Sequence record: MW269952.1
Source of the DNA: Escherichia phage P479
DNA: 64,000 nt
Strand: one strand, 5' to 3'
Each line of letters opens with the position of its first letter. Position 1 is the stretch's first letter. The notes under the pieces are model-generated. The model was not told the origin of the DNA, made no database searches, and saw only the letters and a list, made by a program, of their open reading frames with translations. Position numbers and translations under genes: made by a program. Of this stretch, positions 1 to 60,226 are shown in pieces.

Positions 1-118
1 CTTTTGTATCTGGTCCGCCTAAACATTGAGGAACAACATGGTGAGATTCTTTGTATCCAGTCAATTTTCTAGATTTGGCTCGGTTCATTAAATTCTCATA
101 TATTAAAGCATAATTCAT
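1..118 (-). CDS. HNH homing endonuclease, N-terminal part (gene continues beyond the left window edge)
   Basis: Manual translation of the - strand from ATG at 116-118: MNYALIYENLMNRAKSRKLTGYKESHHVVPQCLGGPDTK..., with the same ESHH-(V/I)-(V/I)-P-(K/Q)-C-(L/M)-GG motif as the HNH ORF at 59552-60226. Not in the ORF track because truncated. Confidence 0.5.
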   Translation of the reverse strand, partial: MNYALIYENLMNRAKSRKLTGYKESHHVVPQCLGGPDTK

Positions 119-121
119 TGT

Positions 122-376
122 ATGTCCTCTTTGGTGATATACTATATTTATACTCAAGTAGTGGAGATGTGGAACCCTATGAATAATATCGAAAAGATTT
201 TTCGTACAATCGAAGAAATTGAAAAACGTAAATGCTTTTTCTTCGGCGTATGGCCTTTAACCGATGGACGTATTGGCCTGGATGTAATGGACTATAAAGA
301 TGAAGACAAGGTCGATGGCGGTATCTTTAAATCCGCTCCAGAACTCTTGACCTTCTTGGAAGAACATTATGTATAA
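122..376 (+). CDS. hypothetical protein (true start possibly ATG at 167)
   Basis: ORF track, 84 aa; no recognisable motif. Confidence 0.35.
   Translation: MSSLVIYYIYTQVVEMWNPMNNIEKIFRTIEEIEKRKCFFFGVWPLTDGRIGLDVMDYKDEDKVDGGIFKSAPELLTFLEEHYV
145..152 (-). promoter_or_regulatory. T4-type late promoter (TATAAATA on - strand) upstream of the partial HNH gene
   Basis: + strand tatttata = TATAAATA on -, 27 nt upstream of the ATG at 118. Confidence 0.45.
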
Positions 377-584
377 CAAACACCATGAAGTTGAAGAAGA
401 AGCTTATAAAGAGCTTCAGAAACTGGTAGGGCAGAATATGTCTCCTGCTCTTATCAACAACCTGGCTGCACTGCGCAATGACCTCAATGAACGGTACAAG
501 GGCGAATATTATGTTGAATTCGTTCCGCTGACTGAAGTCATTGACCGATTTATCGTTAATGTCAAGGTGCATACCGTCCATTAA
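369..584 (+). CDS. hypothetical protein
   Basis: ORF track, 71 aa; overlaps the upstream stop in T4-like fashion. Confidence 0.35.
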   Translation: MYNKHHEVEEEAYKELQKLVGQNMSPALINNLAALRNDLNERYKGEYYVEFVPLTEVIDRFIVNVKVHTVH

Positions 585-622
585 CGCTTTAAAAATTTTA
601 TGTTATAATGGGGTCTAGGTCC
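585..622 (+). promoter_or_regulatory. middle-promoter-like element (variant MotA box cGCTTTA, 14 nt, TATAAT) with conserved downstream GGGGTCTAGGTCC
   Basis: Box at 585-591, TATAAT at 604-609, conserved core 610-622; member of the TATAATGG(T/G)TCTAG family seen at five sites in this window. Confidence 0.4.
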
Positions 623-656
623 TTTGGATAACCCCAATAACTAAGCGAGAAAAGAA

Positions 657-935
657 ATGTTTCCTACATATTCTGAAATTGTTAAAGTAGTTTTTAGTCA
701 GATTGTATCTGATTATCTATACGAAAGCGTCGACACGTCGACTGAACTAAAGGTGCATGGTCGTTTGTCTGCTATTCTGGAAATCATGTTCCCGGATGCA
801 GTTGATGCAATCACTGTTCAACTCACACCTGGTGCAGCATTTGCAATTGTTCCGTTTAAAATTGATAACCACATTTTGGCTATTTCATGCAAAATGGACT
901 TCCAGAAACAAACGGTAGTTGTCGAAGCAATTTAA
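657..935 (+). CDS. hypothetical protein
   Basis: ORF track, 92 aa; preceded by the promoter-like element at 585-622. Confidence 0.4.
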   Translation: MFPTYSEIVKVVFSQIVSDYLYESVDTSTELKVHGRLSAILEIMFPDAVDAITVQLTPGAAFAIVPFKIDNHILAISCKMDFQKQTVVVEAI

Positions 936-937
936 GT

Positions 938-966: not shown

Positions 967-995
967 GAATTTCATCAACACATGAGGAAAACAAA

Positions 996-1517: not shown

Positions 1518-1537
1518 GTAAAACAGGAGACAATCTG

Positions 1538-1783
1538 ATGCTTAGCGAAACCCCAATTACTGTTGAAGAGTTCCACGAAAAAGTGAAGGCATTTGCTCAA
1601 GCGATGATTAATCACGTATCAGAGCGATTCCCTGCTGCGACTTTGCAAGTTATTCAGGAATCTGCACGCAGTTTTATGATTGTCATTAATCCGAAAATTA
1701 CTCTAAAAGGTGGTGACCAGTTGACCCAACTGAAATTGGGTTCTGACGGTCTGGTTGAAGCGCAGCGAGTGTATATTCAATGA
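1538..1783 (+). CDS. hypothetical protein
   Basis: ORF track, 81 aa; RBS aggag upstream. Confidence 0.45.
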   Translation: MLSETPITVEEFHEKVKAFAQAMINHVSERFPAATLQVIQESARSFMIVINPKITLKGGDQLTQLKLGSDGLVEAQRVYIQ

Positions 1784-2115
1784 TGAATTTAATGGATATT
1801 TTTCAGGAAGCACTTAAAAATGATTTGGGTGACCATCGTAAGTTGGACCCGGAGACAGCTGCATTTATCAAAGTAACGCTTGCGAATGATGCTCTGTTTA
1901 AAAGTATTCACCCAAGTAATTATGATGCGGTTGTTATCACAGAAGCTCCTGTAGAAATTGGTGAGCGAATGTTTGGGGTGATTTTTGACGATAAGAAAAA
2001 ACGCTTCAGCGATGGTGATAGTATAATTACAACACATGTTAAGAGCATTACTAAATTGCGACATGAATTATATCGTGTTGAAACTATTAAAACCAATTAT
2101 CTCGTGGTGATGTAA
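1780..2115 (+). CDS. hypothetical protein
   Basis: ORF track, 111 aa; ATGA start/stop overlap with the upstream ORF. Confidence 0.45.
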   Translation: MMNLMDIFQEALKNDLGDHRKLDPETAAFIKVTLANDALFKSIHPSNYDAVVITEAPVEIGERMFGVIFDDKKKRFSDGDSIITTHVKSITKLRHELYRVETIKTNYLVVM

Positions 2116-2697
2116 ATGAAACCAACTACTGTTCTGCAAATCGCATACCTTGTATCTCAAGAATCCAAATGTTGCTCCTGGAAAGTGGGAGCTGTTATTG
2201 AAAAGAATGGTCGCATTATTTCTACAGGGTATAATGGTTCCCCTGCGGGTGGGGTTAACTGTTGCGAGCATGCGGAAGAGCAAGGTTGGTTACTGAATAA
2301 ACCTAAACCAGTTCTCATCCCTGGTCATAAGTCAGAATGCGTGAGATTCAGTCAGGTTGACCGTTTTGTATTGGCGAAAGCTCATCGCGAAGCTCATTCG
2401 GCCTGGTCAAAGAACAACGAAATTCATGCCGAGCTTAATGCGATTCTGTTCGCAGCCAGAATGGGTTCGTCAATTGAAGGCGCTACTATGTATGTGACGC
2501 TTTCTCCTTGCCCTGATTGTGCAAAGGCAATTTCTCAATCAGGAATCAAGAAATTGGTTTACTGTGAAACGTATGATAAGAATATTCCTGGTTGGGATGA
2601 TATCCTGAAGAACGCGGGAATTGAGGTGTTCAATGTGCCTAAGCGTAGTCTAGACAAATTGAACTGGGAAAACATTAACGAATTTTGTGGTGAATAA
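2116..2697 (+). CDS. cd: dCMP deaminase
   Basis: 193 aa; zinc-binding deaminase motifs CEHAE and PCPDC visible; recalled similarity to T4 Cd; synteny upstream of gene 31. Confidence 0.85.
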   Translation: MKPTTVLQIAYLVSQESKCCSWKVGAVIEKNGRIISTGYNGSPAGGVNCCEHAEEQGWLLNKPKPVLIPGHKSECVRFSQVDRFVLAKAHREAHSAWSKNNEIHAELNAILFAARMGSSIEGATMYVTLSPCPDCAKAISQSGIKKLVYCETYDKNIPGWDDILKNAGIEVFNVPKRSLDKLNWENINEFCGE

Positions 2698-2930: not shown

Positions 2931-2932
2931 TT

Positions 2933-18066: not shown

Positions 18067-18078
18067 TATTTATAAATA
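18067..18078. promoter_or_regulatory. overlapping divergent late promoters (TATAAATA on both strands) for genes 51 and 26
   Basis: tatttataaata: - strand TATAAATA at 18067-18074 (25 nt before the gene 51 ATG), + strand TATAAATA at 18071-18078 (17 nt before the gene 26 ATG). Confidence 0.6.
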
Positions 18079-19162: not shown

Positions 19163-19597
19163 ATGAAAACAGAGATTGAATATAAGTTAGAAGTCTTTCA
19201 GGATGAGTTGGATGCAGATTTAAAAATTGATGGTACACAACTTCAATATGAAACACAAAACAACGTTTTGTTGCATAGCAAATGGTTGAGATTGTATACT
19301 AACTGCAAGAAAGAAATAATGCGTCTTGAGATTCAGAAGAAAACTGCACTGAAAAAACGACTAGACCATTATACAGGAAGGGGTGACCCAGGGGAAGAAG
19401 TATGCATGGATGTATACGAGAAGTCAGAATTGAAAACAGTCATGGCCGCAGATTCAAGCGTGTTGAAGATTGATACTTCAATTCAGTATTGGGCACTGCT
19501 CCAGGACTTCTGTAGCGCTGCATTAGATGGTGTTAAGTCACGAAGTTTCGCACTTAAACATATGTTAGAAATAAGACAATTTGAGGCGGGCAAGTAA
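19163..19597 (+). CDS. uvsY: recombination mediator UvsY
   Basis: Translation ...DGTQLQYETQNNVLLHSKWLRLY...LQYWALLQDFCSAALDGVKSRSFALKHMLEIRQFEAGK matches recalled T4 UvsY; start at the internal ATG. Confidence 0.85.
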   Translation: MKTEIEYKLEVFQDELDADLKIDGTQLQYETQNNVLLHSKWLRLYTNCKKEIMRLEIQKKTALKKRLDHYTGRGDPGEEVCMDVYEKSELKTVMAADSSVLKIDTSIQYWALLQDFCSAALDGVKSRSFALKHMLEIRQFEAGK

Positions 19598-22731: not shown

Positions 22732-22739
22732 TATTTATA
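22732..22739 (-). promoter_or_regulatory. T4-type late promoter for uvsW
   Basis: + strand tatttata = TATAAATA on -, 29 nt upstream of the uvsW ATG. Confidence 0.55.
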
Positions 22740-42749: not shown

Positions 42750-42757
42750 TTTGGTCC

Positions 42758-44308: not shown

Positions 44309-44973
44309 TACGATACTCGCTTATAATGGTAAAGTGAAATTGCGCCATTTGCTGTGCCACCTGATAATGTCTGGGTTGAAGTTCCAAGATATTCCCATGA
44401 ACCATAACCACCGCGCGGTTGCTGTGTAATAGTCTGGCTAAGCGTACAACCATATTGAGTGAAAGGTACAAAATTATGGTTTTGGTAGTCGTTATATGTA
44501 ATATTTAATATAGACTGGTCCACACTATCAATTGCAGAGCTTGACACAATTAAACTATCAGCAACAGCCGTCAGCAAAGCATCGTTAACCTTGGAAGCAA
44601 CTAATACAGCCGAATCCCCGACAATAACCTCGACCGGAATACCAAAAATGAAAAATAAAACAGTATCACCGACCCCTGCGCCAGAAATAGACCCGGTGAA
44701 TTTAATTTTATCCGACTGACTAATTGCCGCAGGAGAAAGGTTATTCGTATTAGTAATTACACTGCCAACCGGAAGCTCATATCGAAACGCAATATCATCT
44801 ATTGCGCTCTGAACTGTTGGATAAAAAATACCCTCGGTTGTTTGTGTTGCGGATGGGCCGCCGATTGCTCGTTGACCCATGACAGCCGTAATATTTTTTG
44901 ATGTATTTTGAAATTCTAAGTAACTAGCAAGGCGGGAAATTACTCCAGCCTTTTTATTCGTTAATGTTTTCAT
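44308..44973 (-). CDS. 11: baseplate wedge / short-fibre attachment protein gp11
   Basis: 221 aa (T4 gp11 219 aa); synteny. Confidence 0.8.
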   Translation of the reverse strand: MKTLTNKKAGVISRLASYLEFQNTSKNITAVMGQRAIGGPSATQTTEGIFYPTVQSAIDDIAFRYELPVGSVITNTNNLSPAAISQSDKIKFTGSISGAGVGDTVLFFIFGIPVEVIVGDSAVLVASKVNDALLTAVADSLIVSSSAIDSVDQSILNITYNDYQNHNFVPFTQYGCTLSQTITQQPRGGYGSWEYLGTSTQTLSGGTANGAISLYHYKRVS

Positions 44974-46784: not shown

Positions 46785-47653
46785 TATACCGGTACTCCGA
46801 TTGTTTGGGCGGAAATTACTTTAATAGCGAGCTTCATGGCAGTGGGTGAGCTTATAGCCGCCTGAATGATATCCTGGTTATCAATTCTAAAATCGATGGC
46901 ATATATCTCATCTTCTTCATTAGTTTGTCCACGTCTGATTACAGCGTATTCTGTGCTATATACCTTGCGGTCCTTAAGGTCGATGTAAAGTAATATTTCT
47001 GATGCTTTGTATTTAGTTTCGTCTGTTGAAATAGCTGTCAGCATCAATTTGATAGTTTTATAATCTGCGCGGAAAGCAAGTGGAATATCACGAACAACCG
47101 AGCTCATATTGTATGTTTTGTCGAGCAATACAGATTGGTTGCCAAACATACTTTCAATTTTGTAGTCCCAGGTCCCTACACCGTTAGCATCGTCAATACA
47201 CCACAATGTAATTTTTGTATAAGGCTGAGTAAATTTCATTTTGTTCGTTGCAGCAGTCAGGAATGAATCCGTGCCTTGTAGTTCAACTTCCAAAGGCAAC
47301 GAGGTGGATAATGAACCATTGGAGTTAATAAAGATAACACCTTCGCCTGCTTTACCTTTTGCAATTCTTGCGGTGATAACACCTTCGGCAGTATTGACAT
47401 CTCGCATAGAACCGAGAGCAACAGTTGAGTTCCATTCGATGATATTTGTGGCTTTTTGATAGTAGCCAGTCGCATGAAGTACCTGGGAGTTTTCTCCATT
47501 GTTCACAGAGTACAGACGCTGGTCGCCGAATGTATTATACAAACTGTCTAAATCCACGTTCAGTTTACGACCGCCTTCATATAGAATATCACCGGTGCTG
47601 GCGTTACCAATCTCGCCGATGTCTACTAATAATTTTGGGGTTTGATTAATCAT
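46784..47653 (-). CDS. 9: baseplate wedge / long-tail-fibre socket protein gp9
   Basis: 289 aa (T4 gp9 288 aa); synteny. Confidence 0.85.
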   Translation of the reverse strand: MINQTPKLLVDIGEIGNASTGDILYEGGRKLNVDLDSLYNTFGDQRLYSVNNGENSQVLHATGYYQKATNIIEWNSTVALGSMRDVNTAEGVITARIAKGKAGEGVIFINSNGSLSTSLPLEVELQGTDSFLTAATNKMKFTQPYTKITLWCIDDANGVGTWDYKIESMFGNQSVLLDKTYNMSSVVRDIPLAFRADYKTIKLMLTAISTDETKYKASEILLYIDLKDRKVYSTEYAVIRRGQTNEEDEIYAIDFRIDNQDIIQAAISSPTAMKLAIKVISAQTIGVPV

Positions 47654-47680
47654 AGGTAAGCCTCGTTATTGATATAGCTA

Positions 47681-47688
47681 TATTTATA
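47681..47688 (-). promoter_or_regulatory. T4-type late promoter for gene 9
   Basis: TATAAATA on -, 28 nt upstream of the gene 9 ATG. Confidence 0.55.
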
Positions 47689-47692
47689 GAAT

Positions 47693-47716
47693 AAAAAAGG
47701 GACCCGAAGGTCCCTT
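47693..47716 (-). terminator. rho-independent terminator (GGGACC-cgaa-GGTCCC) after gene 8
   Basis: Hairpin directly after the gene 8 stop, followed on - by a T-run. Confidence 0.65.
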
Positions 47717-47717
47717 G

Positions 47718-48722
47718 CTAGAATTCAAAAATAATGTTAACTTCTTCTGTCTGGTCCATTGCACGAATAATCGGTGGGCGGTTTTCCATATAAATCATTT
47801 CCCCGGAATGACGGTCTAAATCAATTGCATCGTAGTATTCTTTGATTGCTTTGATATTTGGGTCATTAGGATGTACTTTAACTTCAAGTGGGTTGGATAT
47901 AATCGACAGCTGGCGGAAGCCTTTGTTCCCCGGGAGACTGAACTCTGGGAAATAAATGGAATCCATAAATGCTTTAAATCTGATTGTATATCCTTTGATT
48001 CTGTATATTAAACCGAAATCATCTTGTTGCCAGCTGATATTGTCTTTGTAGCCCCAACGTGATGGGTCTTCTTCGATTTCTTCAGGCCATGGAACAACAA
48101 TATATTCGTTAGTACAACGGTTGATGGATACATCAGGTGGAATCTCATACAAATATTCCCAGAGATAACCATCGCCCATATCGACTCGTCCTTCTGTATC
48201 ACCAGTCCCAGCTGGAGCTCTCGTCGAGTTATATTCTGCAGTCCATTTACCACCGAGTTTTAAACACTCTTCTTTATTGATAATAGAATAAATGGAGCAA
48301 GTCCCAACATCAGGAACGTCTACACAACGATAAACCATCCAACCTTTACCAACATCAGTTCGGTTATACGGAGCACTGTTAGCTACAACAATTTCCCCTA
48401 CTTGGAAGTTAAGCGGATTAGGATATCTGATATCGCCCCAGTCTTTACGTGGGACAACACAATCAAGCATTGACTTATAAACTTTGACTGCACCCATCAT
48501 ATTTGTCCAAGTATCTTCAACACCTTGCGCTGTGTCAACCGGATAAGGAGGGGCGAACCCCGGGTCATTCTCATTCGAAGCCCAGGGTTCAGCGCGCCCA
48601 AATGTTACATACATCGTATTCTGGTCGGGCTCGTTACCAATCATTTTATAAAAGTTATACATTTTTTCAGTTCGAAATTTCGAGGTAATTATCGAACGAT
48701 AAACTACAGATGAATTATTCAT
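47718..48722 (-). CDS. 8: baseplate wedge protein gp8
   Basis: 334 aa (T4 gp8 334 aa); synteny. Confidence 0.85.
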   Translation of the reverse strand: MNNSSVVYRSIITSKFRTEKMYNFYKMIGNEPDQNTMYVTFGRAEPWASNENDPGFAPPYPVDTAQGVEDTWTNMMGAVKVYKSMLDCVVPRKDWGDIRYPNPLNFQVGEIVVANSAPYNRTDVGKGWMVYRCVDVPDVGTCSIYSIINKEECLKLGGKWTAEYNSTRAPAGTGDTEGRVDMGDGYLWEYLYEIPPDVSINRCTNEYIVVPWPEEIEEDPSRWGYKDNISWQQDDFGLIYRIKGYTIRFKAFMDSIYFPEFSLPGNKGFRQLSIISNPLEVKVHPNDPNIKAIKEYYDAIDLDRHSGEMIYMENRPPIIRAMDQTEEVNIIFEF

Positions 48723-51700
48723 TTACCTTTACCTGTGTTGGGTCTTTCGGGTCGCGTGGATTACCAATATCATCCTTAAGACGTTGATTAACCAAATTGC
48801 GCCAGTTAGCAAAAGTCACGGCGGACTGGTCAAACAATGGACTGTATTTTTTACGACGTTCAGACGGGAGAGTCCCATGAAAATCTGAAAAATCGTTTTC
48901 GGCATCATAATCTGCCGGTAATGGGAACGGTAAACCTGCGTTAGGAGCAATATTATATACTGCTTCGCCTGTAACAGCATTATGCTCAATGTTTCCATCG
49001 GCTCCAATAACTGCGATACGGTCACACCATTCTGACGGAATACCCGACGACCAACGATAGTTGTTCAGTTTATTGATAATGGTTTCTGTGTGTTTTAATG
49101 ACAGACCAGCATTAACAAACATTGTCAATAATGTAATTCCAACGAATCCAAATCCAACCGGATGAACAAATCGCAATACGTCATTACGATAACGAGATGT
49201 CGGGAGACTTGATTTAATGGTCATTACATAGTAAGAACGATTTCGGTTGATATAATCGATGTTATTGCTAAGTAATTCTTTCCCGCGAACGCCCTGAACA
49301 ATCATGCCTTCAAAGGAAGTCCTTTCGGATTTAATTTCTTGCCCAACAATAAAGCGACCAAGCAAGTTATGAATTGTGATACGCCATCTCAATTTACCCT
49401 GTTTGTAGTCACGCTCCATATAGGTAACGTTACTGCGGCCAGTTGGTGTGTAAATTGTTTGCCCAACAATATCTTCGCTGATATTATCAGATTCGACGAT
49501 TATGTCATACTCGGTTCCGTTCTTGGATTCAATATCGATTTCAACGTCTTCATTATATAACAATTTGAATAAAAACTTATAGGATGCTTCAGTCCCCTTG
49601 GTTGCCCAAAAATCAGACTGTCTTGCTTCAAAGAAACGAACTACTTCGTCCCGCTTGGTCTTTGACAAATATATATTTCTTTTGTACATTTCACTCCAAA
49701 GGTATTCCCATGCATCTTCCTCGCGTGGGTACTGGTTGCGAATCAAGTTCAAAAGGTTGTTATAATATGTGCCAGAACCATCACTGATAAACTGTAAATA
49801 ATATTCACAGAATTTTTCGAAGTTGCTATCCTGGAGCAAATAACTATCCGGAACCATCTTTGTTAAAAGAGGACGCAAGTCCGGGTCTTTCTCTTGTTCA
49901 TCATTATCCGGGGTCCATGGAATATCATGTTCCTGGTTCTGTAATTCTGCAGTGAACATAACTTCTTTCGGTTTCCAGATTAATCTAACTTCATCACGCA
50001 TACGATAGTCGAATTCAAAATAACCAATAAGCTCACCAGTATTTTTATGTAACATAATACCCGAGGCATATTTTTTAAAGCCATTGAATTCGATGTTAGG
50101 AGAAGTAACTTTCACTTGACCTTTATTCCAGTATTCGTGCACAATACGTTCAGGGGATGAACCACCAAAGGTATCGATAATCTTTTGATACAGCATGTCA
50201 TTATATACAACCAGAGCTTTGTCTGATGTAGTAATCCAGCAACGAGTATCATCACGGCGAGACCAGTTAAAGAACGGTTCTGCGTAATATGACATACGTC
50301 CAGGTTTAAACTCTTCCCAACCTGAATCTTTATTTGACCTAAAACTCATCATCAAATAATGCTTGTCATGTATCCATTGTTCATCATACACATATTTGAC
50401 TGCTTCGTTAACTTCTTCAGGATACTTAGCGGGGAGTTCGGTATCTGGCTCAACGGAATAACGGAAGTTACTTGAACTGATAAAAAGTTCAATTCCATCA
50501 GTTGACATGCTTGTGTAACCATGTTCAATACGGCGACGTTCATCCTCTGTATTACCAAAAACTCGTGTCCATGTATCGGTATCGGTATTTAATTTATAAA
50601 CGCCCTTTGATAATGAATCGACAACATTTTCAGGCTTAGTCGGGTCTTGACGTTCTTCCTTTACTTCACCCGTGATTAATGCAAACACTTCACCGTCAAT
50701 TGAATCCATCTTGTAACAAACAGCTTTTGGGTTGCCGCTTATTGTGCTATATCCAGCTTCAAATAATTTTTCACCGAATGTTGGGGAGTTAGGGTCGTTA
50801 TCAATTGGAGCATCAGAAGATTTAGCTTTGTATACACGGTCGCGGCCAGCAACGTAAATCATGGAATCGGTCGTAGTAATTGCTTCGGCAATTGTTGAGA
50901 TATATGCCGGAAGTCTTGCGTATGTGCCAAATATTTCAATATCAAATCCGAGATTAATATCCGAACCAATTTTTGCAAATGTTATATCTTGAGAACTGAA
51001 TCGAACATCATCAGCAGACCATCTTATGTCACTTGATTTACGACCGTAAAAAATTCGGTCATACCCGAGTACGTAAGTTGTCGTATTTGATTGATAATAA
51101 ATCGTGCGCGATACCGGGTTACCGATACGGTCATTAAACAATTTTACATAATACCAGTTCTGCCCTTTATCATTGGAGACTTTGACAGTTGTCTGGAATC
51201 GTTCAAACAAATACAGTACACCACCGAGTTCAGCAATCATCGTACGATTAACATCGTTACACACTGGCTGAATACTACCCTGAATTTCATGGTATTGGTC
51301 TTCTTTTAATACATAGTTTGAAATTGAAGACAAATGAGAATAAGCAGGAGTAAAGCTAAAATCTTCAGACATCAACGATGCCATAATTGCATCATTATTA
51401 AAGTTGATATAAGCCTGATTATTGTTTGTGAATTTTTCTTCGATGAATTTATTTGTTAATGTAAACTCACGCATGTGTTCAAATGTGTATGCGTTAGTTG
51501 CAAAGGTTTCAAATTCTTCGGTATAAACCCAATCAGATTGTTCAAAACCCATTGCTGCAACAGCAACACGCATTTTGTAAAATGATACTGGACGAATAAA
51601 ATCTTGTTCGAACCATTCATTGTCTGGAGTATAACCTAAATTCCTCCATAACAGATTTTCTTCTGGAATAGCAACACCATTTTCTTTTGTCGGAGCAATC

Positions 51701-51813
51701 TCAACAAAATAATAAAAGTTGGCGCCAACATTATCCCATTTTATGCTAACCTGGTTAGCAGATAGTTTATCAATCCGTAAGCTGGTTACATAAGGGGCTT
51801 TAACACTCATCAT
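48715..51813 (-). CDS. 7: baseplate wedge initiator gp7
   Basis: Start at the internal ATG (MMSVKAPYVTSLRIDKLSANQV...) matching the recalled T4 gp7 N-terminus; about 1032 aa as in T4. Confidence 0.85.
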   Translation of the reverse strand: MMSVKAPYVTSLRIDKLSANQVSIKWDNVGANFYYFVEIAPTKENGVAIPEENLLWRNLGYTPDNEWFEQDFIRPVSFYKMRVAVAAMGFEQSDWVYTEEFETFATNAYTFEHMREFTLTNKFIEEKFTNNNQAYINFNNDAIMASLMSEDFSFTPAYSHLSSISNYVLKEDQYHEIQGSIQPVCNDVNRTMIAELGGVLYLFERFQTTVKVSNDKGQNWYYVKLFNDRIGNPVSRTIYYQSNTTTYVLGYDRIFYGRKSSDIRWSADDVRFSSQDITFAKIGSDINLGFDIEIFGTYARLPAYISTIAEAITTTDSMIYVAGRDRVYKAKSSDAPIDNDPNSPTFGEKLFEAGYSTISGNPKAVCYKMDSIDGEVFALITGEVKEERQDPTKPENVVDSLSKGVYKLNTDTDTWTRVFGNTEDERRRIEHGYTSMSTDGIELFISSSNFRYSVEPDTELPAKYPEEVNEAVKYVYDEQWIHDKHYLMMSFRSNKDSGWEEFKPGRMSYYAEPFFNWSRRDDTRCWITTSDKALVVYNDMLYQKIIDTFGGSSPERIVHEYWNKGQVKVTSPNIEFNGFKKYASGIMLHKNTGELIGYFEFDYRMRDEVRLIWKPKEVMFTAELQNQEHDIPWTPDNDEQEKDPDLRPLLTKMVPDSYLLQDSNFEKFCEYYLQFISDGSGTYYNNLLNLIRNQYPREEDAWEYLWSEMYKRNIYLSKTKRDEVVRFFEARQSDFWATKGTEASYKFLFKLLYNEDVEIDIESKNGTEYDIIVESDNISEDIVGQTIYTPTGRSNVTYMERDYKQGKLRWRITIHNLLGRFIVGQEIKSERTSFEGMIVQGVRGKELLSNNIDYINRNRSYYVMTIKSSLPTSRYRNDVLRFVHPVGFGFVGITLLTMFVNAGLSLKHTETIINKLNNYRWSSGIPSEWCDRIAVIGADGNIEHNAVTGEAVYNIAPNAGLPFPLPADYDAENDFSDFHGTLPSERRKKYSPLFDQSAVTFANWRNLVNQRLKDDIGNPRDPKDPTQVKVNE

Positions 51814-51841
51814 GGTTTCCTTAAAAAGCCTCCGAAGAGGC

Positions 51842-53788
51842 TTATAGTGTAATTGGTTCAAGGTCAATCTTTGTATATTGCGGACGAAGGTCATTCTCAA
51901 ATACAATCAGTGAACCATCTTGCGTGTATATATTATCTTGGTTAGGACTTGCATAAAGTTCGATTGATTGAACTTCAAAGCGGTCGGAGGTCAATCCAAT
52001 CGCAGCGATATCCCAAAAAATATAATCAGAGTAATAGTCAATTTCGCCAATTGCGTAATAAACTGTTTGGTCAGCCGGAGCTTCCATTTTATTAAAGTCA
52101 TCTTGCAGGTAAGGCTGGATGTTTACATTTTCAATAACATCGCCTGGACGGAATGGACCAATTACCATTTTACCATCACCACGAGAATCTTTATCAGTTG
52201 CAACAATGCGAACGTTATAGGCTTCACCCGTGGTCGGAACAAATTCAAATTCACTTGATTCGACTGAACGGTTGCCATACTGGTTATAGTATTTAATGCC
52301 GGATTCTGGAGTCTTAAAGAAGTTCAGGACTTCACGCACCATCGAAATGGTTGCAGATGAACCAAGAATACTATGGTCAGTATTATCCACATACGTAAGC
52401 ATTTTTGACTTAGCAAAACTTCTGTTAAAGATTTCAACTTCATCGATATAATAACGGTCAATCTGATTAATGATTTGTGCTTGCAGCCATTGTTCAGATT
52501 CTTGTAATTTGTTCAGCGCATAAGATACTTTGATATTATGTTTAAGGAACAAATAATCCGGAGAAATTACCGAGGGTGTAATTGTTGATACGTTGAACTC
52601 ACTAAGATAGTTCTGGATGTCCTCACGCTGCACTGCAGTGAGATACAAACCCGATTTAGGCTTAACTGATATAAACGCATACCCAGGCTTATTTGCGTCT
52701 GTAAACGTCTGTACGGCTTGCACGATTGAGCCAAATCTTTCGGATACAAAGGTATCATAATCTGTTCCGGTGACAGCACGCATCTGCGCTTCACGTTTAA
52801 CAACAGCCAGTTCACGGATACGTTCGATATCTTCTGGGTCACCACCGCCATCGGCACCGACATAATCAGGGTCGTCATTGTAGTTTTCAGTAATTTTATC
52901 CACTGTGATATAAGACAAAGTATCGGCATAACTGAAATCAACAGCACCGTTTGCATCGGCCCCTGAGGTACGAAGATATTCAATAACAATTGTCGAATCT
53001 TGCACAGGTTTGAGACCGCCAATATAGTTGGCTTCCATAACGCCGCCGGCTACGGATTTGGTGGATTCACCTTCACCAAAGAAAAATTCAGTATAGCCAT
53101 CGATTGTTTCACGCATATAAAATATGGTGGAGGTCGAACCAGCATGGACCATTGATTTGTTCGTCCAGTCAACCCACTCAACACCGTTCACATATAACTT
53201 AACTTCTTTGCGGTCGATATCCGGGTCGCGAATAAGAATAGGTTGTTTCGGGTCATATAAAAGTTCTGTACGAATAATACGGCCCTGGGCTAGAGATACA
53301 ATCGGAAGGTATTGGTTGTTAATATCTTTAACCGCAATAACGTTTTCCGTGGTAACAAAAACATAAGGGTCAGCTGATGTATCACGAGCATATGCCAGGA
53401 ATTTAGTTCCTCGTGGGATTTCAATATTCGATGGTTGCAGAGCATGAGAACATGTCAACATAACCGAAGTCTTTGCGGCCGAACGTGAAGATGGAAGATA
53501 TCCATTATCCTGTGCTGCCTGAACAACCGAAGACCTTAAGTTTGCAGTTCCGATAAATGATTCATAAACTGCCGTGTTAGCAAACTGCTGCATATACAAT
53601 GTATTATATGCAAGCATGTCAATCAGGATATTCATTCGCGAACCTACGAAATCATAATCCTTAAATTCATCCTGGCTTGATAACCAGTCGATGATATTCT
53701 TTTTAATTTCTTCAAACGTAGCTCCCACAAATACTTTTGGGATAGCGTTAACGGTTCTTGTTAATTGGTAATTCGTAGGAGTAGCCAT
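51842..53788 (-). CDS. 6: baseplate wedge protein gp6
   Basis: 648 aa (T4 gp6 660 aa); synteny. Confidence 0.85.
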   Translation of the reverse strand: MATPTNYQLTRTVNAIPKVFVGATFEEIKKNIIDWLSSQDEFKDYDFVGSRMNILIDMLAYNTLYMQQFANTAVYESFIGTANLRSSVVQAAQDNGYLPSSRSAAKTSVMLTCSHALQPSNIEIPRGTKFLAYARDTSADPYVFVTTENVIAVKDINNQYLPIVSLAQGRIIRTELLYDPKQPILIRDPDIDRKEVKLYVNGVEWVDWTNKSMVHAGSTSTIFYMRETIDGYTEFFFGEGESTKSVAGGVMEANYIGGLKPVQDSTIVIEYLRTSGADANGAVDFSYADTLSYITVDKITENYNDDPDYVGADGGGDPEDIERIRELAVVKREAQMRAVTGTDYDTFVSERFGSIVQAVQTFTDANKPGYAFISVKPKSGLYLTAVQREDIQNYLSEFNVSTITPSVISPDYLFLKHNIKVSYALNKLQESEQWLQAQIINQIDRYYIDEVEIFNRSFAKSKMLTYVDNTDHSILGSSATISMVREVLNFFKTPESGIKYYNQYGNRSVESSEFEFVPTTGEAYNVRIVATDKDSRGDGKMVIGPFRPGDVIENVNIQPYLQDDFNKMEAPADQTVYYAIGEIDYYSDYIFWDIAAIGLTSDRFEVQSIELYASPNQDNIYTQDGSLIVFENDLRPQYTKIDLEPITL

Positions 53789-53796
53789 TTTATTTC

Positions 53797-54090
53797 CTAT
53801 TTTATAAAGACTTTTGATGAGGCTTGAGCCACAGTATCACCACATGAAATTGGGTCTGCCATTTGAACAGCTTTCTTACCGGTAACAAATACTTTTGATG
53901 TGCGCGGTTGTGTTACTCCGCCGTGAGTTTCATATGGTTTTTTAATTTCGGTATGCTCGGTAATAGGGTCTCCGGCAACTAACACCGGAATTCCCCCGGT
54001 GAATACTTTACCTTGAGTTGCATTAATTACAGTCGGTGGCCATGCTTCGTGGCCTGCTGTAACACATTGATTGAAACTTAATCCAGCCAT
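53797..54090 (-). CDS. 5.4: PAAR-repeat spike-tip protein gp5.4
   Basis: 97 aa; position downstream of gene 5; size equal to T4 gp5.4. Confidence 0.7.
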
Positions 54091-54611
54091 TAATCCCTCG
54101 CGTATACGTATGAACGCAGTTTATCTGCCCATCTTGACCAGTTGCCAACGATAGTTTTTGTGTAAACTTTTGTCATTGTTTTTCTTACTGGAGCAGGAGG
54201 TGGGTCGGTCTCATTACCTGCACGGCTATTACTGCCGCCAGAGCTCCCTGTGTCTCCACCAGAGCTCTCTTCTTGAAAGTCATAGGTCAGGGTTACCGTG
54301 TATGAAAAGACCTTCTGGAGGCTCGCTGGGGCCCTCCAGAGATACAATTGAGTACTCTTATCGGTAGGAAGGTCTTCCCATGAACCGGCAGTTTTGAATT
54401 CATCATTAAGCCGATATTTAAGTGCATCATCTGCGAATCCGAACACGGATTCGTAAACACCATAAAGATGATTCTCCTCAACATTAACGCCAGGGGTGGC
54501 CTCATATTCAGTTATATTTATTTCGACTAATGTTTCGTTTGTTTCTAATTGAGCTGTAAACGTAACATCGATTGAGGCTCCTTCCATGGAGTCTCCTAAG
54601 TCAGTGCTCAT
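54090..54611 (-). CDS. hypothetical protein (gene 5.1 position)
   Basis: ORF 54090-54671; start at the internal ATG placed just after the gene 5 stop. Confidence 0.45.
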
Positions 54612-54621
54612 TGGAAGTATA

Positions 54622-56364
54622 TTAGCCAATGTCAATCCTCGAACCATCAATAGTATATTGACCAGATGCAATAGAACTCATTGTTGACATTGTTTCGGAC
54701 CAATTGCCAGCCACGGTCATATCAACGTTTCCATTAACGGACCATTTGACATTACCATTTACCGTATAATCATGGTTACCTTCGACAAGAGTTTTTGCGT
54801 CACCTTTAACAGTTATTTCAGCATTACCTTCGACCAGAATACTTACATTACCTTTGACAATAATTGTACCGTCACCTTCAATGGTTTTGGTTTCATTCCC
54901 ACGAATATGAATGCTTTCGTTTCCATCGGTCTGACGACGAACGTTAGCCATATTGTAATAGGTTTCATCACCACCAACGTTGACTTTATTATTACCACCA
55001 ACATAAGTACTCGAATCACCCTGGGTCATATAATAACCATCAGCTACAGTCTTCGAAGTCTTACGACCATCCGGTGCAACTTCCTCGTAGGAACCGGTCG
55101 GGTGAATCAGTCGATAACGTTCTTGTCCAGGGGTGTTATCGAATTCCTGAACATGTCCGCCTTCAGTTTGCATTGTCTGCACATAAGGATATTCGCCCTT
55201 GTAACTGGATTCTGGCTCTTTAAATAGAATCCTCGTATCTTCTGGAGTCCACGGGTCGGCTGGGTCAGAATTTGTAGGGGCTGCAAAGGTTTGAATCATC
55301 CTATATGAACGTCCTTTAAATGACATTTCTTTAGGGGCCATAATACCATATGATTCCATGTTACCTGTGAGGATAATCATTGATACCCTTGATGCACGGC
55401 CTTTAGTTTGGTTAAACCATACAGAATCACGAGCGGCATCAAATGCTTTCTTATAATCTCCGGCTAACATTGCAGCGAGCATCGTTTTAAATTTAGCAAG
55501 CCCACTCAATCCCATTTGGAAAGCCATGTTTTCAAGAGCCATTTGTCTCGAACGGTTTTCTTTATTGTAAACTGGACCCACAACACTATGCCGGCCTATA
55601 TCGTTTTGTACTTTTTTAAGGTCTTCTTGGAATAATTTAGAGGCCTCGTCCATTGATATTGCACCAGGGTTACCTTTAACTTCACGACCTATTTGATTAG
55701 ATAATATTTTGTTTATCTGATTCATATCTCTAATAGGTTGTGGTGCAATTAAGTGTCCTATACCTATAGTAGGATAACCTTCGGTGTCCCAATATACTTT
55801 CAAACGAAGACCTTCATCACGGTGAAGCATATTTTCAATTGTGAAATTAGGATTATCATCTGGCTTAACTTGACTCAAATCAAGGCCATCGGGGTTAATA
55901 CCAAGGTCAAGGTTTGCATCCTGAATTACGTTCGAAGTTGCATCATAACCGACCTCACCGCCTCGGTTGAGCGCAGCAGCATCATTACCTACATAAAGTG
56001 GATATTGTCCTGTTGGGTCAGAGAATCCTTCGTTGGGATTTGCTTTTTGTCTTGAGGCTGAACCATATGTACCAATAACAAGCCCGTTGAGTTTCCACTT
56101 GTCTAAAAAGTGACCATATACTTGAGTCCCTGGCACCATACCGGTCATTGCAGTTTGAATACCAGAAACTGATGCAGATGATGTTGGCATCAATACAGAC
56201 ATCCATGGCAGGTCTTCAGTTCTGATACCTTTTACAGGCCCTTGCGATTTCTCATATGGATGCATACCCCATACACGAACACGAACACGACCTTGTTGAA
56301 GTGGGTCCATTCGGTCTTCGACAACACCGACGAACCAACTTACATTATCTGACATATTAATCAT
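54622..56364 (-). CDS. 5: baseplate central spike with tail lysozyme domain gp5
   Basis: 580 aa (T4 gp5 575 aa); C-terminal beta-helix repeats (VxGxxxxxV-type periodicity); synteny. Confidence 0.85.
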   Translation of the reverse strand: MINMSDNVSWFVGVVEDRMDPLQQGRVRVRVWGMHPYEKSQGPVKGIRTEDLPWMSVLMPTSSASVSGIQTAMTGMVPGTQVYGHFLDKWKLNGLVIGTYGSASRQKANPNEGFSDPTGQYPLYVGNDAAALNRGGEVGYDATSNVIQDANLDLGINPDGLDLSQVKPDDNPNFTIENMLHRDEGLRLKVYWDTEGYPTIGIGHLIAPQPIRDMNQINKILSNQIGREVKGNPGAISMDEASKLFQEDLKKVQNDIGRHSVVGPVYNKENRSRQMALENMAFQMGLSGLAKFKTMLAAMLAGDYKKAFDAARDSVWFNQTKGRASRVSMIILTGNMESYGIMAPKEMSFKGRSYRMIQTFAAPTNSDPADPWTPEDTRILFKEPESSYKGEYPYVQTMQTEGGHVQEFDNTPGQERYRLIHPTGSYEEVAPDGRKTSKTVADGYYMTQGDSSTYVGGNNKVNVGGDETYYNMANVRRQTDGNESIHIRGNETKTIEGDGTIIVKGNVSILVEGNAEITVKGDAKTLVEGNHDYTVNGNVKWSVNGNVDMTVAGNWSETMSTMSSIASGQYTIDGSRIDIG

Positions 56365-56996
56365 AATGCCTTCCTCTGTTTTAAAATATTTTTAACTATG
56401 GAAATATTATGCTCACATATATTTCGATTGAATTGGTAAAAATCAAATCCTAACTTTTTAATATGTCGAGACACATAACGGGTTTCAACCGACGTTGGTA
56501 TAAACCCCATGTTCTTAGTTATTGTCTGCTCATTTTCAAAATGCTTTTTAAGCTTATCAGAAAGAATCTTCTTTTTCTCTTCTGAACATTTTTTGCCATA
56601 ATTTGGTGCATTTACTCCATGCTGGTCTCGCTTTTTTCCATACATGGGATTATTTTTACCTGAGTTATTTGCACTCATAATATCTTTAGTTTTCTGGCTA
56701 TGTTTTCGACCTTTAAAGTTATCATGTTTTAAAAATCCACCGGAGCCGCCTGGTTTTAAATTGTATGAGTTTTCATTAAGAACAACAAGTTCCTTTTCAA
56801 GTTCATACATTTCTTGTTTGGAATCAACAAATTTTAATATTTCTTTTTTGAAATTTTCAATGCCATATTTTAGTATGGCACGTTTAATTAATTTACCTGA
56901 GCCCATATATCCATCATCCATATTTGATGTACTATGCGCCCCGATATAAAATTTGCCGTTAATATTATTGGTTATTTTATATACATAATAAAACAT
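56361..56996 (-). CDS. GIY-YIG homing endonuclease (Seg-like) inserted between genes 53 and 5
   Basis: N-terminus YYVYKITNNINGKFYIGAHS is a GIY-YIG motif; NUMOD3-like repeats (NPMYGKK, NAPNYGKK); start and stop overlap the neighbouring genes. Confidence 0.75.
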   Translation of the reverse strand: MFYYVYKITNNINGKFYIGAHSTSNMDDGYMGSGKLIKRAILKYGIENFKKEILKFVDSKQEMYELEKELVVLNENSYNLKPGGSGGFLKHDNFKGRKHSQKTKDIMSANNSGKNNPMYGKKRDQHGVNAPNYGKKCSEEKKKILSDKLKKHFENEQTITKNMGFIPTSVETRYVSRHIKKLGFDFYQFNRNICEHNISIVKNILKQRKAL

Positions 56997-57598
56997 TAGA
57001 GTGCCTTTTCCATTTCACGGATTAATGCCGAAATAAATGATTCGATATCATTAGGGTCGATTATCTTTATTTCTCGTTTATATTCATTTTTACGAATAGC
57101 ATCTTCATAGATATCTACTGCAGCTAATGGACCTTCATATTGTGGGTACAATTTATTCTTATCACCTTTATCATACCAGGTGTACGGATTATCAGGATAA
57201 GAAACAAGATTCCAGAATTTTTCACCATCTTCATTTACATGATAAAGAACCTGATTACCACCTATATTCGAATAGCGTTGAATTGATGCCTGATACGATG
57301 ATTCTTGTGAACATATCCAACCATAATACGGGTCATAGATATCATTAAGCATAAGGAGAACCCAATAGAGTTGAGTATTACCATAGAGCTGATATGCAAG
57401 TTCTTCAGGTCTTGGAGCTCCAGCGATGTAATATGTTTTCGGTGTATAATTAACCGCAACCTTATCAAAATAGGCGCGATAGTTTCTGAAGATGTCAGTC
57501 ATTGGGATGCTTAAGACGTCTTCTTTCGTTAATGATGCCGAGTTTTTTCTGATTGTTTTAGCATCATAATCAATTGGGTTAAAAAATGAAAAAAGCAT
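56996..57598 (-). CDS. 53: baseplate wedge protein gp53
   Basis: Start at the internal ATG (MLFSFFNPIDYDAKT...) matching the recalled T4 gp53 N-terminus. Confidence 0.8.
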   Translation of the reverse strand: MLFSFFNPIDYDAKTIRKNSASLTKEDVLSIPMTDIFRNYRAYFDKVAVNYTPKTYYIAGAPRPEELAYQLYGNTQLYWVLLMLNDIYDPYYGWICSQESSYQASIQRYSNIGGNQVLYHVNEDGEKFWNLVSYPDNPYTWYDKGDKNKLYPQYEGPLAAVDIYEDAIRKNEYKREIKIIDPNDIESFISALIREMEKAL

Positions 57599-57610
57599 AA
57601 AGCCTCCATT

Positions 57611-57618
57611 TATAAATA
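57611..57618 (+). promoter_or_regulatory. T4-type late promoter for gene 4
   Basis: tataaata 28 nt upstream of the gene 4 ATG, with RBS aggagg. Confidence 0.55.
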
Positions 57619-57646
57619 AGTATATCAATATTTATTAGGAGGCTAT

Positions 57647-58099
57647 ATGGCATACTCCGGGAAATGGCAACCTAAAAACGTTGCAAAGTACAAAGGAGAC
57701 TGGAAGAAAATTACCTACAGGTCAAACTGGGAAAAATTTGTATTTAACTGGTTGGATAATCATCCAGATGTGGTGCAATGGGGGTCAGAGACCGTTATCA
57801 TTCCATATTTTAGTAATGCGGATGGTAAAAAACGCAGGTATTACATGGATATGTGGGTAAAATTTTCAAATGGTCAACAATTTTTCTTTGAGGTTAAACC
57901 CAAAAAGGAAACAAGACCTCCAGCAAAACCAGTTAATACGACCGCTGCGAGCAAGAAGAGATTTATGAACGAAATGTATGTTTGGGCTGTTAATTCGGAT
58001 AAATGGAAAGCCGCTCAAGCTGTAGCTGATAAAATGGGCATCCAATTTAGATTGATTACTGAAGATGCACTTAGGAAAATGGGTTATAAGGGTTTATAA
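57647..58099 (+). CDS. 4: head completion protein gp4
   Basis: 150 aa; MAYSGKWQPKNVAKYKGDWKKITYRSNWEKF... matches recalled T4 gp4; divergent from gene 53 as in T4. Confidence 0.75.
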   Translation: MAYSGKWQPKNVAKYKGDWKKITYRSNWEKFVFNWLDNHPDVVQWGSETVIIPYFSNADGKKRRYYMDMWVKFSNGQQFFFEVKPKKETRPPAKPVNTTAASKKRFMNEMYVWAVNSDKWKAAQAVADKMGIQFRLITEDALRKMGYKGL

Positions 58100-58746
58100 T
58101 GTATACGGTATATCAAATAACAAATAAAATTAATAACAAAATTTACATCGGTGTGCACAAAACCGACAATATCGATGACAAGTATATGGGCACAGGGAAA
58201 TTAATATTAAAAGCTCATAAAAAATATGGTATTGAAAATTTTCAAAAGGATATTTTATTTGTTTTTGATTCCATCAATGAATCAGAGAACGAAAATTTAG
58301 CCTTTGCTAAAGAGGCTGATTTAGTCGACCAAGAATTTGTTAATCGGCCCGACACGTACAACATTGATTTGGGTGGTAGAGGCGGTCGCGGCCGCTCCGC
58401 TTCTGTTAGAAAACGTATTGGTGATGCCCAGCGAGGAAAACCTGGTAAAAAACCATCAAAAGAATCTCGTTTAAAAATGAGTTTGGCACACAAGGGTAAA
58501 AAATTATCCGAAGAACATAAGATAAAAATTGGCAATGCTGGCCGTGGTAAAAAGCGTCCTGAAAGTGCAAATGAAGCGGTTAGACAACATTTATTAGGGG
58601 TTCCTCGTAAAGAAGAACATAAAAATAATATGAGAATTGGTTTTCTAAATACACCTACCAAAATATGTCCACACTGTGGATTAGAATGCAAACCAGCCCC
58701 ATTTAAAAGATGGCATGGCGATAATTGCAAAGCGAGGAAAGGATGA
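58099..58746 (+). CDS. GIY-YIG homing endonuclease (Seg-like) inserted between genes 4 and 2
   Basis: N-terminus [19 protein letters not shown] is a GIY-YIG motif; NUMOD3-like repeats; C-terminal CPHCG...HGDNC zinc-finger-like; overlaps the gene 4 stop and gene 2 start. Confidence 0.75.
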
Positions 58747-59570
58747 GTATTTTTACATTTATCAATGAATCTGCAGATAAACCAGGTCCGAAACCCAGTA
58801 AATCAGAACAACAATGGGTTGAAATAGGGGTTGAATTTTATACAGCAAAAGAAAAGGGAATGACCTCGAAGAAGTTTGCTGAAGAGAAAGGAATCAACTA
58901 TTCGACCTTTACCAAAAGCATGTCAAGATATCATTCGAGAATTCAGACTGCTTATAAAGTATCCAAGCTCAAAAAGAAACCTGCCGGTAAACTTACGAAG
59001 GCTGAACGTCAGCTGATAATGGTGAATAGCTTTAGAAAGAGCATAAGAGATAAGATTGCTAACGAAGGCGCTGCAAGCAACACCAAATCTGCCAGATGGT
59101 TCGCTGAGACAATTAAGAAATCAGTTCGTGGTCACGTAACGGCTAAACCTCAACCGGGTAAGATTTATGCTTATATCTATGATGCAAAGCATAAGGATAC
59201 TCTTCCGTACTGGGATAAATATCCGTTAATCATTTATCTTGGGCTAGGTAAGCACAATTTGATGTATGGTTTGAACTTGCACTATATTCCACCGAAGGCA
59301 CGTCAAGAGTTCCTTGAGGAACTTCTTAAGCAATATGCTAATACTCCTACGATTACGAACAAGACTCATCTGAAGATTGATTGGTCAAAGGTGAAGGGAT
59401 TTAAAGGGGCTGACCAGATGATTAAAGCATATATACCTGGCAATATAAAAGGTACTATTACTGAAATCAAGCCCAGCGACTGGGCAAACGTTGTATTACT
59501 CCCCCTTCAGCAGTTTTTTTCAAAAGGCAAAAGATTTTCTTCACAGAAAGTATGGAGAAATTCACTTTGA
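58743..59570 (+). CDS. 2: DNA end protector protein gp2
   Basis: About 275 aa from the internal ATG (T4 gp2 274 aa); synteny 4-2-3-1. Confidence 0.75.
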
Positions 59571-60226
59571 ATTATCAGTTTATATATTCATCGTTAATTG
59601 AAAGGGCCCGTAACAGGGCCCTGATTTCATATAAAGAATCTCATCACATCATTCCGAAATGTATGGGCGGTTCAAATGCTCCGGATAACCTAGTCGATTT
59701 GACTCCCGAAGAACATTATGTAGCCCATCAACTATTGGTTAAAATATATCCTACAAATCCAGGTTTAAGTTTTGCTGCCACATCTATGAGCCAGTCAAGC
59801 AAGTATTTGAAACGCAATAATAAATTATTTGGCTGGTTAAGACGCAGACACGCTGACAATATTTCTAAAAGCCAAACCGGTAAAGTTTACTTTAATAATG
59901 GTGTCAAATCGATAAAACTATTTCCATGGGAAGATGTTCCGGATGGGTTTGTCAAAGGAAGACATTACAGTCCAACCAAGGGTACAAAACATTCTCGCAA
60001 TAATGGACATTTTAAAAATAAAGAGATTCAGGATGAATTGAGAAAGCGCCGGTGGGAAAAAGATAGGCAAGAAATGTGTAAAAACTTCGGAGTTGATACC
60101 ATCGAGCAAGCTCGAGAGTTGGTCCTAGCATATAAAAAGGAATTGCATCCTCGATACTGGGTAAAGCCAATGTTGGAACGTTATCCGTTTATGACTAAGC
60201 TAAGACTTAACACATTAATAAAATAA
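59552..60226 (+). CDS. HNH-family homing endonuclease (Mob-like) inserted between genes 2 and 3
   Basis: [30 protein letters not shown] motif; paralogous to 20422-21207 and to the partial gene at 1-118; overlaps the gene 2 3' end. Confidence 0.7.

Follow-up and report, generated by a model that had tools for sequence, protein, structure and literature searches.

Mob endonucleases of T4-like phages

The Mob family of HNH homing endonucleases has been familiar since the T4 genome. The mob genes of this phage, together with its seg genes, are reviewed in PMC2988022. Among the Mob enzymes, nicks or breaks in the endonuclease-free allele have been mapped for MobE and MobA only (PMC2988022, PMC2790892). 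MobE introduces a strand-specific nick in nrdB of phage T2, for which the HNH motif is required, and flanking sequence is co-converted; the mobE gene has no promoter of its own and relies on upstream transcription (PMC2790892). Here we describe three genes in a stretch of 64,000 nt of Escherichia phage P479 (sequence record MW269952.1), called the window hereafter. An earlier note, made from the sequence alone, had presented them as paralogous and actively spreading Mob-like endonuclease genes at 1-118 on the minus strand (copy 1, HNH1), 20422-21207 on the minus strand (copy 2, HNH2) and 59552-60226 on the plus strand (copy 3, HNH3), accompanied by two GIY-YIG genes. The three open reading frames are present as placed. 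Judging from sequence comparison, they very probably belong to the T4 Mob family of free-standing HNH homing endonucleases, each as a lineage of its own.

By megablast, the window derives from a T4-like coliphage that falls in Gaprivervirus, the SP18/VR20 group, and SP18, VR20, VR25, VR7, PSD2001 and UPEC01 are 95-97% identical to it across most segments. Presence and absence were tallied in about 35 close relatives of this genus. VR20, which is poor in endonuclease genes, was the reference for a whole-window blastn comparison and the source of the empty-site junctions. T4 MobA-E were taken from NC_000866 for direct comparison by BLASTP. Since the window holds only the first 39 codons of copy 1, the SP18 protein (gp235) was used as its full-length surrogate.

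Relationship of the three copies to the Mob family

In pairwise BLASTP comparisons, copy 1 (SP18 surrogate) and copy 3 are 56% identical across 97 aa (E 7e-39), copies 2 and 3 are 37% identical across 110 aa (E 4e-17), and copies 1 and 2 are 38% identical across 86 aa (E 8e-13). The common part is an N-terminal nuclease domain of about 100 aa that is wider than the HNH core; the outcome that the earlier note had named as refuting, a likeness confined to the generic HNH signature, thus did not occur. The C-terminal halves gave no significant mutual alignment in the same comparisons, in agreement with the statement that the copies differ elsewhere.

All three proteins share the first residues MNYxxIY, and the Mob N-terminal pattern MNY..IY..L ... 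E.HH..P...GG.....N.V.LT...H..AH can be read in each of them. The ESHH to GG block previously assigned to the three copies holds in general, but in copy 2, which reads EIHHIIPKSVGG, S is replaced by I, C by S and M/L by V. The N-L-V element given after this block cannot be attributed to copy 1, for which it lies beyond the window edge and reads N-R-V in relatives. The three copies match the PHROG family phrog_655, "homing endonuclease" (copy 1, E 3e-62; copy 2, E 1e-45; copy 3, E 4e-56), and T4 MobB-E in BLASTP (E 1e-14 to 1e-28). Across eight N-terminal domains, those of T4 MobB-E included, there are 21 invariant positions: M1, N2, Y3, Y7, L10, E-x-HH, P, GG, N-x-V-x-LT, H-x-x-AH, L, K and A. 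In this alignment copy 1 was represented by its 39 window codons and by the orthologues of SP18 and PSD2001, which do not differ from it across those codons. The direct comparison with T4 MobA-E thus bears out the Mob-like nature of the genes. In NCBIfam, the only matches were sub-threshold ones of the HNH core to IscB, which was taken as low sensitivity, and a PDB sequence search with all three proteins gave no relative besides weak HNH-core matches (E of at least 0.07).

None of the T4 enzymes is equivalent to any of the copies in every respect. MobB is 49% identical to copy 3 over 107 aa and 49% identical to copy 1 over 97 aa, in the N-terminal domain, but the C-terminal halves are unrelated and mobB has another insertion site, between a-gt and a-gt.2. 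MobE is 51-61% identical to the copies over 64-77 aa (61% over 64 aa for copy 3, 51% over 75 aa for copy 1). Like mobE, copies 2 and 3 have no late-type promoter of their own, would depend on upstream transcription and lie between two conserved genes (PMC2790892). However, MobE is encoded between nrdA and nrdB and has only 141 aa with a short C-terminal region, whereas the copies have other sites and other C-terminal domains. MobD and copy 2 are 30% identical over their whole length (275 columns, E 7e-27), and the alignment takes in the C-terminal ..LWI..N.PK....F......GYPK..Y... segment. T4 mobD is located at 56429-57208, between nrdC.11 and mobD.1, whereas copy 2 lies at the uvsW/uvsW.1 junction and its orthologues are all found at the uvsW 3' end. 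Because of this different insertion site, copy 2 has a MobD-like architecture without being a positional orthologue of mobD.

The C-terminal regions of the copies, which presumably bind DNA, are distinct: that of copy 1 carries NUMOD3 and a zinc finger, that of copy 2 is MobD-like, and no family match was detected for that of copy 3. Comparison with the VR20 empty sites places all three genes between host genes and not in an intron or intein.

The uvsW/uvsW.1 junction

Copy 2 (20422-21207, minus strand) encodes a 261-aa Mob-type HNH endonuclease. As the earlier note had described, it is wedged between uvsW and uvsW.1 with overlapping codons, 4 nt being shared with the uvsW stop (ATGA) and 1 nt with the uvsW.1 start (TAATG). 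Its last 23 nt (20422-20444, minus strand), ATTAAACAGGTGGAAATATAATG, encode ..IKQVEI* and are an exact copy of the native junction: in VR20, uvsW ends in this same string (..IKQVEI*), with its stop overlapped by the uvsW.1 ATG. Compared with VR20, SP18 and P8, the 23-nt string carries the native uvsW 3' end and the uvsW.1 ribosome-binding and start junction of endonuclease-free phages. In the window, copy 2 ends in ..DKFIKQVEI*, its last 7 codons being host-junction sequence, and uvsW ends in a second, diverged junction copy, GTGAAACATGTGGAACTATGA (..VKHVEL*), whose stop overlaps the copy-2 ATG.

The uvsW 3' end beside copy 2 (21204-21500, minus strand) is hypervariable. The last 300 nt or so are 76-88% identical to VR20, whereas the other parts of uvsW are 97-100% identical and the uvsW.1 side is 100% identical. 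Differences from VR20 number 55 nt in the last 100 codons of uvsW versus 17 in the first 400. The nicking target or the immunity polymorphisms are predicted to lie here.

Of the close relatives, Yersinia phage P8 alone carries copy 2 (89% nt identity). The junction is vacant in about 17 records, and copy 2 is likewise missing from VR20. A different Mob gene occupies it in SP18, UPEC01, DK-13, TH40 and pEC-M719-6WT.2; in SP18 and UPEC01 this alternative gene is bracketed by a 17-nt direct repeat of the uvsW-junction string. SP18_gp197 and its UPEC01 equivalent are annotated as 199-aa proteins, labelled "homing endonuclease" in SP18 and "group I intron endonuclease" in UPEC01, with the start placed after the catalytic HH. 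The corrected open reading frame begins at a TTG that overlaps the uvsW stop and encodes a Mob-type HNH protein of 231 aa, and an annotation correction follows for both truncated entries. The gene (excerpted loci 1623-2318, minus strand, in both phages) is a fourth Mob lineage and the competitor of copy 2 for this junction. A cassette exchange between copy 2 and the SP18 gene through their common 5' end (28/33 nt) was considered and rejected, because T4 mobE, which resides at a different site, also shares 26/33 nt.

Orthologues of copy 2 are present at the uvsW 3' end in Bp7 (76%), in Enterobacter Karamvirus phages (63%), in Acinetobacter Twarogvirinae phages (54%) and in an Aeromonas phage (42%). 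The deposited ones include ORF003 of Yersinia phage P8 (89.7% aa identity) and gp019 of Bp7 (76% aa identity). In Acinetobacter phage AbTZA1 the orthologue follows uvsW (excerpted locus 1801-2877), the genes that come next lie on the other strand, and no uvsW.1 is annotated downstream. In the literature, nothing specific was found on uvsW.1 together with homing endonucleases.

The gene 2/gene 3 junction

The open frame of copy 3 (59552-60226, plus strand) has 224 aa if counted from the ATG at 59552. Its most likely start, according to the sequence context, is the TTG at 59567, which overlaps the new gene-2 stop as TTGA and has a GGAG 9 nt before it; the ATG at 59552 belongs to the coding sequence of gene 2 and is present in the endonuclease-free VR20 but not in VR7. 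Copy 3 would then be a 219-aa Mob-type HNH endonuclease at 59567-60226, directly before the original stop of gene 2. The empty site reads AAATTCA|TAATCT and the occupied one AAATTCA[CTTTGAATTATC...TTAATAAAA]TAATCT. Gene 2 has therefore gained one codon and a new TGA, and copy 3 ends on the original TAA of gene 2.

A diverged patch is also found upstream of copy 3, at 59446-59566 (plus strand), and is its predicted target or immunity region. These last 100 nt or so of gene 2 are 85% identical to the endonuclease-free VR20 and 96% identical to the carrier VR25, whereas the other parts of gene 2 are 96-99% identical. Of the nt differences, which are mainly synonymous, 15 fall in the last 34 codons and 14 in the first 240.

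Copy 3 is present in 8 of 34 matching records and missing from the other 26. Its orthologues VR25 gp282 (98% aa identity) and VR7 gp161 (87% aa identity) were labelled "similar to T4 MobB" by the annotators of those genomes. Further orthologues, 62-70% identical, adjoin gene 2 in phages of six other host genera, among them Klebsiella, Citrobacter, Serratia, Erwinia and Kosakonia.

The pseT/cd.4 junction

Copy 1 (1-118, minus strand) is clipped by the window edge, and its first 39 codons translate as MNYALIYENLMNRAKSRKLTGYKESHHVVPQCLGGPDTK. The identical 39 residues open SP18 gp235 (241 aa, "homing endonuclease") and an open reading frame of PSD2001 that carries no annotation. Window positions 1-178 match SP18 in 178/178 nt and VR25 in 176/178 nt. 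The leader of the cassette (119-178, minus strand) contains a Shine-Dalgarno sequence, AGAGGA, at 125-130 and the late-type promoter already noticed from the sequence, TATAAATA at 145-152 (minus strand), 26 nt 5' of the ATG.

The right boundary of the cassette is at 178/179, since endonuclease-free relatives align only from this point onward. On its plus strand, the cassette provides a GGAG 5' of the cd.4 ATG at 179. The empty pseT/cd.4 site reads GACTTTTAATGAAT and the occupied one GACTTTTGA[about 700 nt]ATGAAT. Copy 1 is antisense to its early-gene neighbours pseT and cd.4. It has no stop codon of its own, and therefore its frame continues into pseT, in antisense, for 87 nt. To the left of the window, the final 100 nt of pseT are 78% identical between carriers and non-carriers and 93-100% identical among carriers.

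The C-terminal region, as seen in the SP18 surrogate, scores 22.4 bits for NUMOD3 (cut-off 20.4). It also has a zinc finger, CPHCG...HFDNC, at residues 190-215 of the SP18 orthologue (excerpted locus 1893-2618, minus strand). The finger shares 50% identity with the C-terminal end of the GIY-YIG protein encoded at 58099-58746 (window 58660-58737) and 46% with that of T4 I-TevIII. It is therefore a presumably DNA-binding module shared by HNH and GIY-YIG endonucleases, and the shuffling of modules among phage endonucleases has been described previously (PMC2988022, PMC10448857).

Copy 1 occurs in 10 records and is missing from the others. The deposited orthologues SP18_gp235 and VR25 gp208 are 100% identical in aa sequence across the 39 codons available, and more distant orthologues adjoin pseT in Salmonella KM16 and Erwinia Kaldavass. 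In phage P896, the same junction holds a SegD-like GIY-YIG gene in sense orientation, with its own TATAAATA (excerpted locus 1789-2508, plus strand). The junction thus exists in three states: empty (VR20), with an antisense Mob gene (the window), or with a sense SegD-like gene (P896). With respect to orientation, the closest T4 parallel to copy 1 is segD, the sole free-standing T4 endonuclease gene that runs against its neighbours, genes 23 and 24 (PMC2988022). However, segD is a GIY-YIG gene without an identifiable promoter, whereas copy 1 is of the HNH type and brings its own TATAAATA.

Insertion anatomy and expression

Mapping against relatives, which had been proposed as a check, shows that each copy is inserted seamlessly at a precise gene junction. 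The start codons of copies 2 and 3 overlap the stop of the upstream gene (ATGA and TTGA, respectively). A junction-copy architecture, such as that of copy 2, is also present in both GIY-YIG genes of the window and in the alternative SP18 gene. The copied 3' ends of the window are at 20422-20444 (uvsW), 58732-58746 (gene 4) and 56361-56375 (gene 53). They carry the ribosome-binding site and the stop/start overlap of the downstream gene, and the host gene upstream keeps a second, diverged copy as its own 3' end. A transposon-like target-site duplication of fixed length was considered as the origin of these repeats and rejected, because the duplicated length differs by site, from 0 to about 23 nt, and follows the downstream ribosome-binding site. 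The copied junctions would instead preserve this ribosome-binding site and the stop/start coupling. This would agree with the general principle that invading endonuclease genes must suit the expression programme of the host (PMC2988022).

The late promoter sequence TATAAATA occurs 22 times in the window, versus 4.7 expected. Copies 2 and 3 have no late-type promoter of this kind of their own, and therefore they are probably carried on the late transcripts of uvsW and gene 4. The TATAAATA at 22732-22739 (minus strand), upstream of uvsW, is the likely source of a uvsW-HNH2-uvsW.1 transcript, and no other copy of the motif lies between it and copy 2. Similarly, the one at 57611-57618 (plus strand), upstream of gene 4, is the likely source of a transcript that comprises gene 4, the GIY-YIG gene, gene 2, HNH3 and gene 3. 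Elsewhere, two TATAAATA on opposite strands overlap by 4 nt at 18067-18078, between the divergent genes 51 and 26, an arrangement that looks like a compact back-to-back pair of late promoters.

Mobility and alternative explanations

Copies 1, 2 and 3 are independently present or absent among near-identical Gaprivervirus genomes. The hypervariable patches lie on the host-gene side of the junction, and this one-sidedness is shown for uvsW and gene 2. Between SP18 and VR25, the copy-1 cassette and the pseT tail are 94-100% identical, in contrast to 54-86% in the flanks, which fits a recent homing event. The claim of an actively spreading family is supported by this cassette identity, by the patchy presence of the genes and by the endonuclease-linked hypervariable flanks; sporadic presence and co-converted flanks are what the Mob family would lead one to expect.

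From the observed anatomy, distribution and patches, and by analogy with T4 MobE and MobA, we infer the following course of nicking, target choice and immunity. When a relative that lacks the gene infects the same cell, the enzyme would, late in this mixed infection, nick the relative's allele close to the insertion point; pseT, uvsW and gene 2 are predicted to be hit at their 3' ends. Recombinational repair on the endonuclease-carrying template would then copy the gene and a short host-gene flank to the recipient. The substitutions in the copied flank would presumably shield the donor allele from cutting.

Several points weigh against this interpretation. All three copies are known from sequence, and their nuclease activity and biased inheritance are predictions; copy 1 is represented in the window by 39 codons, its full length being taken from relatives. 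Even within the T4 family, MobB, MobC and MobD are listed as "activity not determined" (PMC2988022). The general Pfam model for HNH (PF01844, cut-off 21.4 bits) passes for copy 2 only, with 22.9 bits; the copy-1 surrogate scores 13.6 bits, the 39-aa window fragment of copy 1 likewise fails, and copy 3 has no Pfam hit at E<=0.01. This model is insensitive to the Mob subfamily, and the PHROG and T4 Mob comparisons are unambiguous. Ordinary mosaic recombination, instead of endonuclease-driven conversion, could have produced the hypervariable flanks. Finally, the copy-3 gene of VR7 (88%) is more diverged than its flanks, which suits an earlier or independent acquisition better than continuing spread.

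Apart from homing, it might be argued that the genes are inactive or domesticated relics, kept for the sake of their coupled neighbours or for some role beneficial to the host. T4 itself carries defective mobA and I-TevIII, junction copying makes a clean deletion costly, and TTG start codons suggest low expression. However, the three open reading frames are intact with all the invariant Mob residues, the contrast between the copy-1 cassette and its flanks requires recent lateral movement, and independent assortment in close relatives is hard to explain without mobility. We therefore consider relics unlikely.

Much less probable still is that the copies are true recent paralogues that arose in this genome by duplication and transposition of one Mob gene. 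Such an origin would account for the common N-terminal domain and its identical opening, but the identity among copies is 37-56%, in the N-terminal part only, and is no higher than that to T4 MobB or MobE. Same-site orthologues in distant genera, on the other hand, share 54-76% identity with their copy over the full length, from which it follows that the lineages split before these phage genera did. Comparison of the two ranges accordingly indicates that the three copies are old, separate, site-faithful lineages, with no expansion within this genome. The term paralogous, as used in the earlier note, is thus correct at the family level but not for a within-genome expansion. The idea that the genes are housekeeping HNH nucleases rather than selfish ones, terminase-associated or acting in repair with UvsW or gp2, has hardly any credibility: although their neighbours handle DNA (the uvsW helicase, the gp2 DNA-end protector and the pseT kinase), each gene is missing in most near-identical viable relatives, all three have direct matches in the Mob homing endonuclease family, and T4-like headful packaging is not known to need an accessory HNH protein.

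GIY-YIG companion genes

The window contains two GIY-YIG homing endonuclease genes, both with a catalytic domain and NUMOD3, free-standing and sporadic, as in the Seg family. The Seg-like gene at 58099-58746 (plus strand) lies between genes 4 and 2. Its NUMOD3 match passes the Pfam cut-off, its GIY-YIG matches (21.1 bits) fall slightly under the cut-offs, and it belongs to phrog_314 (E 2e-53). Its 3' end (GGAAAGGATGA) is the re-used native end of gene 4. The SegE-like gene at 56361-56996 (minus strand) is found between genes 53 and 5 and has Pfam matches to GIY-YIG, SegE_GIY-YIG and NUMOD3. The two are 50% identical to each other across 96 aa (tblastn). Both are missing from VR20 and most relatives, and they co-occur in PSD2001 only.

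The total of five homing endonuclease genes, given previously for the window, was confirmed by tblastn, Pfam and the VR20 comparison. In the whole-window blastn, the segments 1-178, 20443-21205, 56374-56999, 58042-58735 and 59565-60222 had no match in VR20. These five are the sole gene-sized insertions with respect to VR20, and the count is therefore exact. Neither tblastn with the five proteins nor the VR20 comparison revealed further endonuclease genes in the window, and ten other open reading frames of the window are ordinary T4 genes by Pfam. No genome in the phage collection has all three Mob copies and both GIY-YIG genes.

Other features of the window

The gene order is that of a T4-like myovirus: cd.4...cd, 31, 30, alt, 54-48-29-28-27-51, 26, 25, uvsY, uvsW.1, uvsW, inh, hoc, rnlB, 24, 23...5, 53, 4, 2, 3, 1 and 57B. 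Besides the endonuclease genes, whole-window blastn left a 152-nt indel, uvsY.-1 and the divergent wac/gene-12 region without a match in VR20. The uvsY.-1 gene is present in the window and not in VR20, and gene 24 is single in the window whereas VR20 has two tandem paralogues (relevant window pieces 19597-19830 and 26309-27589). The wac/gene-12 region (41259-43667) is 65-68% identical to VR20 in nucleotide sequence or unmatched, a divergence that is probably related to host range and independent of the endonuclease genes.

The baseplate block from gene 12 to gene 4 (43668-58041) is about 80-82% identical to VR20, and from 58736 to 63692 the identity is back at 94-96%. This switch falls exactly across the GIY-YIG gene at 58099-58746, which places an endonuclease gene on a mosaic boundary. 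Endonuclease genes at mosaic boundaries have been described as "HEG islands" (PMC10448857). The gene-57B homologue at 61821-62276 (plus strand) matches Pfam Acb1, an anti-CBASS protein (E 1.5e-59).

Significance

The finding is already known, in the sense that near-identical genes have been deposited and annotated as homing or mobile endonucleases. With 89-100% protein identity to those entries, the genes are therefore ordinary, and the understanding of homing endonucleases in T4-like phages is unchanged. The five selfish endonuclease cassettes make up about 5% of the window, and the value of recognizing them lies chiefly in correct annotation. For instance, where identity falls locally, as at the 3' ends of uvsW, gene 2 and pseT, this would be read as a by-product of the cassettes and not as host-driven divergence. 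It can also be seen that several endonuclease genes vie for one junction: two Mob genes for uvsW/uvsW.1, and a Mob or a Seg gene for pseT/cd.4.

Target-site predictions that can be tested follow for the three Mob lineages, since the patches at 21204-21500, at 59446-59566 and at the pseT end may mark their nicking sites. The junction copy, for its part, may be a general, selected rule for harmless entry into translationally coupled phage operons. If this were true, the copy-2 lineage, which has kept its uvsW address from Escherichia to Acinetobacter phages, would be a model of endonuclease-target co-evolution. We put forward this joint reading of patches, junction copies and the copy-2 lineage tentatively, as a possibility that falls somewhat short of an even chance.

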